DNA from: Chrysomallon squamiferum
Lineage: Eukaryota; Animalia; Mollusca
Reading direction: 5' to 3'
Length of the DNA: 64,000 nt
NCBI GenBank assembly: GCA_012295275.1
Contig: CM022667.1
Location: 17,422,001-17,486,000, forward strand
Below, in pieces: positions 39,385-60,175 of this stretch. Positions within the stretch are counted from its first letter, which is position 1. Each line of letters starts with the position of its first letter. The notes beneath the pieces were generated by a model. That model saw only the letters and a list, made by a program, of their open reading frames with translations. It did not search any database and was not told the origin of the DNA. A program made the position numbers and the translations under genes.

Positions 39385-40527
39385 ATGGAAGTCGGTGTGG
39401 TAGTGTTTTTTGTTGCCGTTGTTACCAGAGTGGTTGCGATTGCTGTTGACGTGGATCATGTAAGAAACATGGATGAAAGCATTTTAAAGAAAACTAATCG
39501 AGGTTACATTTGTTTCCTTACATAGATATCTACACACAACGCACACAAAGACACACATACACAAACCCATACAGGAATACATTCGCACACACAAATACAT
39601 ATACATAGTACACGTACAAACAATCATACGCTTTGCATCCAAGGTATTAATAATTATTTATAATAATTCTTTATTATTATTATTATTATTATTATTATTA
39701 TTATTATTATTATTATTATTACTGTTGTTGTTGTTTGTTTTAGAATGGCTTTTCATATATGACAAACTGTATGGTTCCTTTTTCTACGAAACTAAGACAT
39801 CTTCTGGTGGCTACCCCTCTATCGAGTATTACCTTTCTGGAACTTATGAAAAAGCAAAGGCAGATTTCATTAAAATGGTGATGGGAAAGTATAAACTTAG
39901 TGGTGCTGAAATGCTATGGTAAAACATACTTATATTTTCTTTAACGTACGCATTAACTAGCAGAAGAATGTAAAACAATCAGCAGTGAAGAAACTATTAC
40001 AACATAAACAGCACAAGTAGCAGTAATATTGGAGAAATAATAACAGAGGTAGTAACAGAACTGACAGAAATGGTACTAGCAGTAGTGGTTGTAGTGTTTT
40101 TGTCGTTAACAGATTTGTTTGAAAATTTTATTATTTTAATGCTATATTAGTAAATTAATAAGACAAGATATACACTTCATATTTTCATAAAAAAAACCAT
40201 ATAATAATTAAATATATATATATATAACGTATTATACTGCTCTCTCTCTCTCTCTCTCTCTCTCTCTCTCTCTCTCTCTCTCTCTATATATATATATATA
40301 TATATATATATATATATATATATATATATATATATATATATTTAAATTTCCTTGTCGTTGCTTCTGTTTGTAGGGGTGAAATACCTGAGGAACATGTTAC
40401 TATCATTTTTCGCAGAAGAGGACCGCTGGGATCAGCAGCAACAATAACAATTAAGCGCGTGTCCTTAAACAAAATAACAAAAACTGAAGATTTTCTTTTC
40501 TTTGACTTCACAGCCTATAGAAATTAG
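39385..40527 (+). CDS. Uncharacterised secreted protein, family member A (148 aa, 3 exons)
   Basis: Exons 39385-39502, 39744-39918, 40374-40527 (phases 1 and 2), AATAAA at ~40547. MEVGVVVFFVAVVTRVVAIA signal-like N-terminus; core EYYLSGTYEKAKADF...WGEIPEEHVTIIFRRRGPLGSAATITI...FFDFTAYRN*. Same intron positions as members B and C. The exon-1 donor (G/GTTACA) is weak. Confidence 0.8.
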
Positions 40528-42724
40528 AAGTCACATATTGTGACAGAATAAATAAATATCTGTTTTGAATGCAGAATTTTTTTTTTTTTTTTTTTTTTCT
40601 CTCTTTTTCCTCTCCTTTTCTTTTTGTATTAGTTTTAATCAATTATTTAATTATTTCGTAGCACAAAGCGGAAATTTATAAAGTTTCTGAGCTGGGACAG
40701 TAACAGGCAAAATAGTAGCTGGCTGTCAACATTTATTTGCTACCAGTTTAGTTTCGCTCACTAAACTACAACTGTTAAAGATTCACATTTAATAATCCTG
40801 TATTTATAATTTTCCTTCTTATTATTTATAAGAACATAGCGTCTATGGCAAGCATTCAAAATATGACCGCGTCAAAAAATTTACCATAACAGAAACGTTT
40901 CACTGGCGTCCCTCTTCCTAACCTATCTCAAATAAATACACATCGCAAAAACATGCACGCACGCACGCACGCACGCACGCACACACACACACACATATAT
41001 ATGCACATCAAAAATATGTATTAGTAATATTATTAAGTCTTTGTGTTGCTAATGTTGCTATCACTTCAATCCTATTACTACTACTGCTGCTACTATTACC
41101 ACTATTACTAATAATATTAGTGCTACTACCTGCTAATACAATTTCTGCTATTAACGCTATTAATACTACTGTTACTGCCAGTACTGCTGCTGGTGATATT
41201 ACCACTATCAACACGACAACGACTACGGCTACAACGACTAGCTCTTCTCAGACTGACAATGGGAAGATTCATCTAAGAATATTCCGTGTTGTAATGTTTT
41301 CATCTCAATACATTTAGTGTGTGTCTTATATGTGGACGTGCGTACGTGCGTTTGTGCAAGCTATTGACTGATGAAAGTGCCTGAATGTATTATATATACA
41401 GGAATCAAAATTCTGTTGTTGTAGCCGATTAGTCACTGCACGTAGACAGATACCGCTGAGACTGTGCTGTTTGCAAATGACTATATGACAAATGCAAATA
41501 GCAAATTTGTTTCTACATAAATTTAATGAAAATAAAAATTAATGTTAAAACATCAGATAATTAGTATTTGTTTTTGATTGTTTATTTTAATTTATCAGAA
41601 AAATTATTTTACAAAGAAAAATACATTACAAAAAAAAGTAAAGAAAGAAGTCTGTGATGTTGTTAACATCTAATATTATCTTACAGAGAGGCTTGTATTT
41701 TGTATGATGTCCGAGTTAATTTGTAGAAAAAGATGTTTCAAAGTACTGGCAGCTGTATGCGTGGTAAAAGTAATAAACATAGTATTAATAGATGTTGTAT
41801 AAATAACAGTAGTCGTCACAGTGCAGTGGTCGTCGCCGTGATAGCAGTTGTAATAGTAATAGTTATTGCTGTAGCAGAGACGCTGATGTAGTGGTAGTAG
41901 TAGAAGTAGTGGAACTAGCAGCATCAGCAGAAGGGTCGCTACAGTCGTTGGAGTGGGTATAGTGTGTACCTCGAACACTTTTTTCTTCTCGTCAAAGAAA
42001 TCTGATTCATGTTCCAGTTCCAAGAATTTCTGATCTCTGAAGTGTTAATCTTTAATCAGTTTTAAACTGATGTTTTTTTTTTTCCCTTAGTTGTTTTGAA
42101 GACGTTAGGAAATGGGGAGAATTGGGTCACATCGGGAGATTTGGGAAAATGGGATTCTATGCTGTAGTAACATACAAGAAACTAACAAACATCTTTTATT
42201 GAAGATATTGATAATATTAATATTCAAGAACCGTGTTAACTACAATATGGTATATTAATAATCTTTCTTTAGTTATGCTTATACATAGTCACTATTCAAC
42301 ATTCATTATCACTGCTGGCACAAGACCTGCATCATTGTTTTCTTTTGAAAATTTCTTAGCATCATGATTTTTAATTGTATATTTTTGTTAATACGAGTAA
42401 CATTTACTACATGTCTGGAGGCAGAAGTGAGACACCCACTGGAGAAAACCGCGAACACTACATACTATACTACACATACCGCGACATAACAGAGGCAAGA
42501 CAAAACGTCCATTAAACATCATCTAACTAAGATACATGGCATTAACGAATAAAATGTAGGTTGAAAAAAAAAATTGTTTTCTATGCTTGTAGTGTTTTCC
42601 CGTGAGCGTGTGACAAGAATCAAAGGTCTTCAGATAATTGTATCTTTGAATTTGATTACAGGTTTACAGAACAGATTTACAGCGTCTGTCTGAATTCTCC
42701 CTCAGTAATCCCCGTTCTCCCTTA

Positions 42725-57569: not shown

Positions 57570-58774
57570 TTGTTTTCTTACGTACTAAATTCCTTACTTT
57601 CTTAAAAAGCATCGATATTTAAAAACAATAAAATGAATAGCATAAAGTGAATCGTTAGTATTTTTTCTAATATTATTTGAATTAATAATAACTGCTTTTT
57701 GTAATTAAATTAACAAGAAACTCACGCAGCAATCTTTCGAAATTCCAAAAAATAAACTTTTTAAATCTTAATTTTATTTCAACCATTTCAATTATGATTT
57801 GGATTTAATGACTACAGCAAGCGCCCAGAATGATAATTTCCGAGTTATTAATAGATCTTAATTCATACACACTAAGCAACGAACAAGCGCTGATAGAATT
57901 TATAAGTGTACCAATTAATAAACGAACAATCCATGAAAATAGCATCTGAAATACATTTTCTGAACGTTTTATTATTTTTAATTTCATTTTATTAATTTTT
58001 TTTTTTTTTTTTTTTTAAATTTTCGTAGAGGATAGATATAGTGGTAGTAGTAAAAATATTTTATTCATTATTTTTAGAGAATTAATACACAGAAAGTAAT
58101 TTCAATATCTTGTTAATTGTTCATAAAGAGACAAAGTGCTACGAAGAGCAACATATTGAAAAATAAGATGTCAATGCTGAAATAGGAAATGAGAAATAAA
58201 TACCTAAAAATTTAGACATCATACATTACCTTACCTGTTTTGTAGATTGCTTTGGAATATAAATATATATATATAAGGTAATATTATATATGATGTCTAA
58301 GTTTTTATATATATTTTTTATCTCAAACTGAAGACATTCTCTAGTGATAATGAATTATTGGACACAGAACATATACAGGATAGATCTTTAGCTATATATT
58401 ACAGAACTGCTCTCTTCACACACACACACACACATCATTATTGTTATTATTGAATTTTAATTTTAATTTTATTTATTTAATTATTATTGTATTTTTAATC
58501 ATGATTTAGAGATAACAAATGGCAGGTTAGCAAACACTTTTAATTAATGATTCATTCAATAATTATTTCATTGTTAAAAACGATCAATGATCCATTGTTT
58601 TTTCATGACAATCAATCCAGATGTAAACAACAACTTTGCATGCATAATCATAATATTCTGTAAACTTGTGACACTAAACACATACCATAAATACAGATTA
58701 ATATCAAACATCGAAACATTTTTCATTTACAATATTTTAAAAAAGAAGAAGAAGAAAACGAAAGAACTTGAAAT

Positions 58775-60175
58775 ATGAGAGCCAAATGTAACAGGAGCCA
58801 TACTAGCTTCCATTGTTGTCTTAGTGAGTGTTCAGTTTTTTACCTCTGCTCAAGCACATTCAGTCCGTTTGGATAAGCTGGACAATCAACAGGATGGTTA
58901 AGTTATTTTATATTTATATATATATTATCAAAATAAATAAACACACACAAAAACATGCAGGTACTTTAGAAGCACGCACACATTAACATTCACCCCATGA
59001 CTGCCTATCTACATCTATTTTTCCATAATGCAATTAATAATTATTGAGAGAATCATTAGTTAAAACAGTTTCTATTTTTTCCTGTACTACCCTGCCATTT
59101 GTTATCTTTAAATCATGATAAAAATAATAATAAATAAATGAAATAAAAATTAAAAATCAAAATAATAGTAATAATAAACAAATAAATAAATAAATAAATA
59201 AAAAGTTAAAAACCAATAATAACAATAATAATGTTCCTAAGACCCCAGTAGTAACAGACACAGCAACGATAGTGTAATATGGCAGCCATAGCTGCAGTTG
59301 TAGTCATAGATGTGGTAGTAATCCTAACTGGAGAAGTAGTCCTAGCTAAAATAGTTGTCACACCAGAATGGTAATAAAAGACCTGATTTCATTTTCTAAT
59401 TGCTGTTGCTTTTCTTCTCATGTTGGTATTTCTTATAATAACAATATTCTTTGTTTCCTTTTTTATTTTTTTAAATATATAAATTTTTTTTATCAAATAA
59501 TAATAATAAATATATATATATGTTTGTATATATATATATATATATATATATATATATATTATATGTACATGTGTGTGTATATATATTTCATTTAGAATGG
59601 ATGGATGACTACAATAAATTACACCTGAAAGCTTTTTATGAGCTTAAAACAAAAGGCAAAGATGATGTTGTAATTAAAGAATTTTATCGTTCGGGCACAT
59701 ATGAAGAGGCTCTTCAGGATTTCTGTATTTTAGTCAAGGAGGATTTTGAGACTCTACATGAAGGGACAGAAAATGAAACTAAATGGTAAACAATTATTTA
59801 ATACAAAATTTGATAGTAGTATCAGTACAGTTCTAAAATTCACTATAGAAATGTATTAATAGCTTCTTTTTATCACATATTTGTTAATTTTGTAAAATAA
59901 GTATCAATTTGAAAAGGCTTGACTGTAGACTCGCAAGAATCTAATATTGCATATGAAATAGTGCAGCAGTAAGAATAGTGCATTGGTAAGAATAGAAATA
60001 AAGATAATATAGTAATATCAGTTATATTTTCAGGGGTCTTATACCTGACTCTGATGTTTCTGTACATCTCCAAAGATGGGGAATCCTAGGAGTAGCTGCT
60101 ACACTGAATATCTCAAAAGTCGCAACAGAAACAGAAATTTTTAGATACTTTGATTTCACACACTACATTAACTAA
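58775..60175 (+). pseudogene. Uncharacterised secreted protein, family member C; +1 frameshift in codon 4 (pseudogene or base-call error)
   Basis: Exons 58775-58896, 59596-59785, 60034-60175, inverted paralog of member B. ATGAGAGCCAAATGTA versus ATGAGAGCCAATGTA in B; the extra A gives a stop within exon 1. Exons 2-3 and all splice sites are intact. Confidence 0.75.

Follow-up and report, generated by a model that had tools for sequence, protein, structure and literature searches.

A small gene family of the mollusc Chrysomallon squamiferum with a domain probably derived from a bacterial toxin tip

We analysed a window of 64,000 nucleotides (nt) of the mollusc Chrysomallon squamiferum (assembly GCA_012295275.1, contig CM022667.1, positions 17,422,001 to 17,486,000); the window is this whole stretch, and all positions are counted along it. 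It holds a small, apparently unannotated family of three-exon genes, here called A, B and C. The roughly 110-residue domain encoded by their exons 2 and 3 probably descends from a family of bacterial tips, the C-terminal domains of RHS and haemagglutinin-repeat proteins. Our best explanation, in which our confidence is evenly balanced, is that the proteins would be secreted antibacterial effectors acting at the body surface. Documented animal domestication of interbacterial toxins is rare, with tick dae2, insect cdtB/aip56, teneurin and EndoU as examples. If true, the present case adds a toxin family that is still without a name or a structure, has no known activity, and occurs here in a form overlooked by annotation databases. 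It also yields a testable set, namely the bacterial tip/immunity pairs, the intact paralogues A and B, and a structural hint on the origin of the teneurin ABD.

All three loci lie where the original prediction had placed them, with three exons each (Table 1). Each of the six introns runs from GT to AG. Intron 1 is of phase 1 and intron 2, which splits a Trp codon, is of phase 2 in A, B and C alike, which confirms the common intron positions and phases first proposed. The summed exons give intact open frames of 148 amino acids in A and 150 in B, and the splicing of both is predicted from this gene structure. A signal peptide had been assigned to each gene. Exon 1 of A and of B is signal-peptide-like in its hydropathy, but C has a frameshift right behind its start codon and, as assembled, is without an in-frame signal peptide. 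A C-type contig from run X2 aligns gap-free to exon 1 of B over 45764-46009; thus, the break may be private to the assembly or haplotype. In an independent run, near-identical contigs cover B and parts of A. The proteins had been described as small and poor in cysteine; A and B contain none, and exon 2 of C has one. The spacing in exon 3 is V-x5-R-x-G and not V-x4-R as first read, with an Arg that is invariant in the three copies. N-glycosylation sequons occur in exons 2 and 3 of B (44651-45225, minus strand) and C (59598-60172, plus strand), and A is without them.

We compared A and B exon by exon. Exons 2 and 3 share 46-50% protein identity in local alignment, with alignment scores of 82 and 98, respectively (best of 5000 shuffles, 53 and 46). 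Exon 1 was not above chance, since 3321 of 5000 shuffles scored as high. No DNA similarity was found between the two loci. Since the proteins are alike although the DNA is not, the protein has been under selection. B and C form the arms of an interrupted inverted duplication of recent date (97.3% identity over 1673 nt), and a fourth, 5'-only copy is 96.8% identical to B over 1104 nt. No further copy was found among the 2765 six-frame peptides of the window. Thus, the expanding family of the original prediction reduces to two old paralogues and one recent copy, which is broken, together with a 5' fragment. Two minisatellite-like tandem arrays lie within the duplicated region (47423-47942 and 49119-49443).

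The bacterial tip family was found by scanning genome contigs for a two-part motif from the window proteins. This gave four loci, each with the same domain of about 95 amino acids. Homology searches added tips from Bacillota, Proteobacteria, Dependentiae and metagenomes (in one search, 5 of 401 genomes). From 28 full-length instances 6 near-duplicates were removed, leaving 22 non-redundant tips. They terminate RHS, haemagglutinin-repeat and DUF6531 proteins. In all full matches the tip lies no more than 11 residues from the protein C-terminus, except in L002/L011 (52 residues). At 19 of 21 loci the tip is followed directly by a small open reading frame (ORF). Of these 19 ORFs, 18 fall in one family (linked at E ≤ 1e-3). 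The accessible text of PMC3417536 gives the defining layout of polymorphic toxins as a C-terminal toxin tip of a trafficking protein, then an immunity gene. A C-terminal tip with a related downstream gene has this layout; thus, judged by sequence, the family behaves as a polymorphic-toxin tip with a predicted immunity-like neighbour.

No match to Pfam, NCBIfam or the PDB was found for either the tips (by sequence) or the immunity-like family. Thirty Atlas clusters are close to the tips, none of them with a Pfam family, and the nearest named families, Ntox37 (0.84), Ntox47 (0.82) and Ntox21 (0.80), are leads only. The literature covered, with most subscription papers and all supplements outside it (including the family alignments of PMC3482391, a possible home of the tip family), held no description of the tip family, of its animal form or of a link between the ABD and the tips. 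The immunity-like genes, of about 125-145 amino acids (e.g., L006:473-865 and L003:326-733), are present in several phyla. Two Dependentiae loci (L003, L004) hold both the tip and the neighbour gene, with up to three matches per genome. Dependentiae live inside the cells of protists, which may have offered the tips a way into eukaryotes.

We then estimated how well the tips match the animal proteins. With a profile of the 22 tips, the three exon-2 peptides ranked 1-3 among the 2765 window peptides (E = 0.0002, 0.008 and 0.46). With exons 2 and 3 joined, B matched 84 columns of the profile (12-95 of 97; 29.1 bits, p = 4.7e-11), C the same columns (24.7 bits) and A columns 23-91 (13.9 bits), so that the match is strong for B and C and moderate for A. 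In the best case, B and a tip had 27 identical residues over about 80 aligned columns. Because the family had been found by a motif, shuffles were done with the motif residues held fixed; the score was reached in 0 of 2000 for B, 0 of 2000 for C and 5 of 2000 for A. HHalign gave 91.5% for animal exons 2 and 3 against the tips. A profile built from the 16 of 22 tips that do not have the exact motif still matched B (23.9 bits, columns 13-93). By comparison, a TPR profile matched the animal domains in the helix only (13-18 residues, at most 14.7 bits).

The reverse comparison agreed in part. In the ranking by the animal profile, tip-bearing peptides filled ranks 1-23 of 609, with several tips at background score. 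The window exon-2 profile was also run in five tip-bearing genomes: the tip was the top match in three, two of which did not come from the motif scan, and no match was obtained in the other two; four of the six matches were tips. In an unrooted tree with an unresolved backbone, the animal rows form one long branch apart from all 22 tips, which names no donor. Thus, the collinear match over most of the domain makes descent from the bacterial tips probable, and the likeness to toxin tips in the original prediction is retained for the RHS/haemagglutinin family, its LXG part being weak (E = 0.043). Unlike the tips, the animal forms stand alone behind a signal-like peptide, carry two introns and extra N- and C-terminal residues, have altered candidate catalytic residues, and show no immunity-like partner gene in the window.

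Direct searches used single exons as queries, so their sensitivity is low. The window exons had no match in Pfam (PF23538, Teneurin_ABD, included), no relative in NCBIfam or among plasmids and phages, no credible relative in PHROGs (best E = 0.15), and nothing credible in the Atlas (best 0.78). A word-index protein search gave 18 and 422 candidates with none passing, and metagenome motif patterns gave 0 of 481. The best PDB sequence match, to a light-harvesting protein (E = 0.077), was rejected as chance. In the full library, five matches to exon 2 were rejected as relatives; they were summed repeats, four of TPR and one of DUF11. Since TPR repeats carry G-x-YE-x-A-x2-DF, this helix motif, which had been taken to point to toxins, is not diagnostic alone.

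A model of one tip (L012:1027-1299; pLDDT 92.5) consists of a short helix, a strand, a helix and five strands. Foldseek of this model against the PDB and viral proteins returned nothing at E ≤ 0.001, and teneurins were on top of its PDB list (E = 0.06). A wide structural search gave teneurin-2 residues 2575-2667 as the best match (9g42_B; Z = 7.4, root-mean-square deviation 2.8, 79 aligned, 19% identity) and fly teneurin (8fia_A 2537-2621) at Z = 5.8, where a Z under 8 may reflect merely a common structural arrangement. The next matches were a designed protein, nucleotidyltransferases and glyoxalase-like domains (Z ≤ 5.5). According to the domain order in the accessible text of PMC5851990, the matched residues of teneurin-2 fall in the ABD, just behind the RHS shell. 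Thus, the ABD sits after the RHS/YD shell, where bacterial tips sit. However, it belongs to a large membrane receptor, and PF23538 (27-bit cut-off) matched none of the single window exons, 15 tips or tip positions of five genomes. The structural match suggests that the teneurin ABD may be what is left of an ancient tip from this family. We also put forward, as a rather unlikely idea, that animals captured the tip family twice: long ago as the teneurin ABD, which would then be a second fossil toxin and not the bleomycin-binding-like domain described in the available parts of PMC5851990 and PMC6425310, and again as a stand-alone, secreted family with introns, still attacking bacteria.

The original prediction had proposed a BECR-like RNase fold. 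In the accessible text of PMC3482391 this fold is an N-terminal helix, then a four-stranded meander, and in that of PMC9086364 BECR tips are mostly recognisable by structure alone. We took as its marks a helix with a four-stranded meander, a late-strand Ser/Thr and metal-independent RNA cleavage. The tips resemble BECR RNases such as colicin D/E5, RelE, Ntox21 and Ntox47 (PMC3482391, PMC9086364, as far as accessible) in being small alpha+beta domains with a helix, then a strand meander, and a late-strand Thr, and the strand, helix and five strands of the model are compatible with the definition. The Thr is present in 22 of 22 tips and in A, B and C, and it is a candidate only for the BECR Ser/Thr position. 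However, the tips have no conserved His, and no BECR RNase was among the 50 best structural matches, which is insufficient to decide against the fold. The top match was the teneurin ABD region, and a BECR fold is a candidate only.

In the tips, conserved polar residues cluster round the last three strands (Arg in 20 of 22, Ser in 20, Thr in 22, Glu in 21, Arg in 21, Tyr in 21), which are therefore likely to form the active site. By analogy, the helix-plus-meander layout and the conserved Arg, Thr, Glu and Arg-Tyr suggest that the tips may cleave RNA. If the animal domain has this ancestry, we consider it fairly probable that an antibacterial role was retained. An animal ancestor would have taken up a stand-alone tip cassette without the immunity gene, and the captured tip would have acquired an intron within the domain and, for its signal peptide, an additional exon. 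Duplication would have followed, early between A and B and recently between B and C. Exported by means of its signal peptide, the protein would act on bacteria at the body surface, and a domain that attacks nucleic acids would be kept away from the cytoplasm of the animal itself. Four points led us to favour this explanation: the probable descent from the tips, a signal-like first exon, the turnover of copies and the precedent of dae2. The available text on tick dae2 (10.1101/2020.04.10.036376) reports an interbacterial toxin, acquired by transfer, which carries a signal peptide and kills bacteria of the skin, and that on insect cdtB/aip56 reports bacterial toxin genes taken into animal genomes (PMC10120054). 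Both are, like A-C, bacterial toxin genes in an animal genome, and dae2 is in addition secreted against bacteria. However, they belong to other toxin families with activity shown, whereas the domain of A-C is known here by sequence only. Of the domesticated toxin-like effector first predicted, the probable tip ancestry and the introns stand, and the effector role is a proposal; no result supported its use in venom or in a particular tissue.

Several results weigh against tip ancestry or an effector role. The comparison family was selected with a motif derived from the finding itself. Taken by itself, exon 3 gives a weak match (p about 0.005 in B and in C; not significant in A, with 328 of 2000 shuffles as high; HHalign 0.3-0.4%), and its profile found no tip in the five tip-bearing genomes. 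The match of exon 2 by itself becomes marginal when the residues of the helix motif and its Gly are kept in place (99, 52 and 228 of 2000 shuffles). By our arithmetic, for the full library (1.84 billion proteins) the p-value of B becomes an E of about 0.09, short of significance, and when HMMER searched that library with the exon-2 profile all five matches were artefacts. The exon-2 peptide modelled in isolation is all-helical at low confidence (pLDDT 61). Among the candidate catalytic residues, the animal proteins have Asn or Thr in place of the tip Glu, the tip Arg conserved in 20 of 22 is unplaceable (Arg in A, His in B and C, with conflicting registers), and the terminal Arg-Tyr is missing from A. 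The proteins are not cationic (K+R/D+E of 15/12 in A and 14/18 in B) and A, B and C have no delivery module, which leaves no explanation of how they would enter bacteria; nor do the bacterial tips have any known activity. That B and C differ in exon 2 mostly at non-synonymous sites counts in favour of our explanation; 17 of about 150 such sites are affected, against 7 of 248 sites in intron 2 (p = 0.0008), but compared with synonymous sites there is no significant excess (p = 0.54), and the nearby intron 1 is 15% diverged. For this reason positive selection on exon 2 is not claimed; partial gene conversion, or drift if C is broken, fits equally. Finally, of the four runs compared, three were small RNA libraries (56-95 million letters each, all as contigs), and the proposed RNA check of the junctions found no spliced contig for any copy in them.

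These points can be read in other ways. The main rival, which we hold to be unlikely but worth serious weight, accepts the bacterial ancestry and takes the domain as catalytically dead, a secreted binding, matrix or signalling protein like the teneurin toxin domain. The changed Glu, the unplaceable Arg, the incomplete A and the near-neutral charge of A and B all fit it, and there is a precedent in teneurin Tox-GHH, whose catalytic histidines are lost according to the accessible text of PMC6425310. However, the Thr is kept in all three copies, Arg-Tyr in B and C, and the exon-3 Arg is invariant. It is improbable that the genes are a lineage-specific orphan family in which a common amphipathic helix motif and generic beta strands resemble the tips by chance. 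Such a chance likeness would be in keeping with the frequency of the motif in TPR repeats, the weakness of exon 3 by itself, the motif-based selection of the comparison family and the long branch between the animal rows and all 22 tips; against it, the collinear match over 84 of 97 columns survives both motif-fixed shuffles and removal of the motif-bearing tips, and the ranking is reciprocal in whole genomes.

If the genes had arisen within animals by copying of the teneurin ABD, whose fold the tips share, no separate transfer would be needed. The two teneurin matches of the tip model and the head of the Foldseek list point that way. However, the tips do match the window proteins by sequence, and the window exons match neither PF23538 nor any teneurin chain (again with single-exon queries); we therefore regard this origin as very improbable. 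The least credible rival is that all copies are silent relics. C is broken, the fourth copy is a fragment, and spliced RNA was not seen: one 218-nt contig with C-type letters covers exon 3 and the 3' end and enters intron 2 by 8 nt, and it is therefore unspliced RNA or DNA, while the runs covered A in repeats only, which says nothing about its expression. On the other side, open frames and splice sites are intact in A and B, whose protein identity persists without DNA similarity, and the RNA runs were small and available as contigs only. The secreted antibacterial effector remains our preferred reading.

Table 1. Exons, partial copy and duplication arms of the gene family in the window.
Feature	Position	Strand	Description
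Gene A, exon 1	39385..39502	+	Hydrophobic signal-like peptide, short linker
Gene A, exon 2	39744..39918	+	N-terminal half of the mature domain, predicted by homology to hold a strand and the YE-x-A-x2-DF helix
Gene A, exon 3	40374..40527	+	C-terminal half, strands predicted by homology; stop; AATAAA 20 nt further on
Gene B, exon 1	45893..46013	-	Signal-like peptide, linker; KKR across the exon 1/2 junction
Gene B, exon 2	45038..45227	-	Closest match to the bacterial tip profile
Gene B, exon 3	44648..44789	-	Contains stop; AATAAA 73 and 82 nt further on
Copy C, exon 1	58775..58896	+	Frame broken near 58785; stop at 58874-58876
Copy C, exon 2	59596..59785	+	19/190 nt differ from B: 17 non-synonymous, 2 synonymous
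Copy C, exon 3	60034..60175	+	3/142 nt differ from B; C-type letters in an unspliced RNA-library contig
Fourth copy, partial	55565..56662	+	Sequence upstream of B and the beginning of its exon 1; without ATG and exons 2-3
Interrupted inverted duplication holding B and C	43555..61277		Arms 43555-45217/59606-61277, 45807-46215/58571-58982, 46999-47528/55039-55571, 47797-48674/51550-52427

The neighbours of the family in the window are ordinary animal genes, namely tyrosinases, a family-61 glycosyltransferase, an inositol monophosphatase and a DDE transposase. With these neighbours and with spliceosomal introns of their own, A, B and C are resident in the animal genome. The closest ordinary gene upstream of A is represented by an inositol monophosphatase exon (34827-35102, plus strand). 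A Pogo/Tigger-type DDE transposase ORF (52846-53928, plus strand; PF03184, PF03221) lies between the arms of the inverted duplication. A single ORF of 683 amino acids with a Glyco_transf_61 domain (27217-29268, plus strand) is one which we take to be POMGNT2-like. The three tyrosinase genes form a tandem cluster of a kind found in molluscs (3029-6769, 11584-15589 and 18160-22220) with a Cys-rich last exon; PF00264 was confirmed in two of them, and the second and third genes are 96-98% identical to each other.

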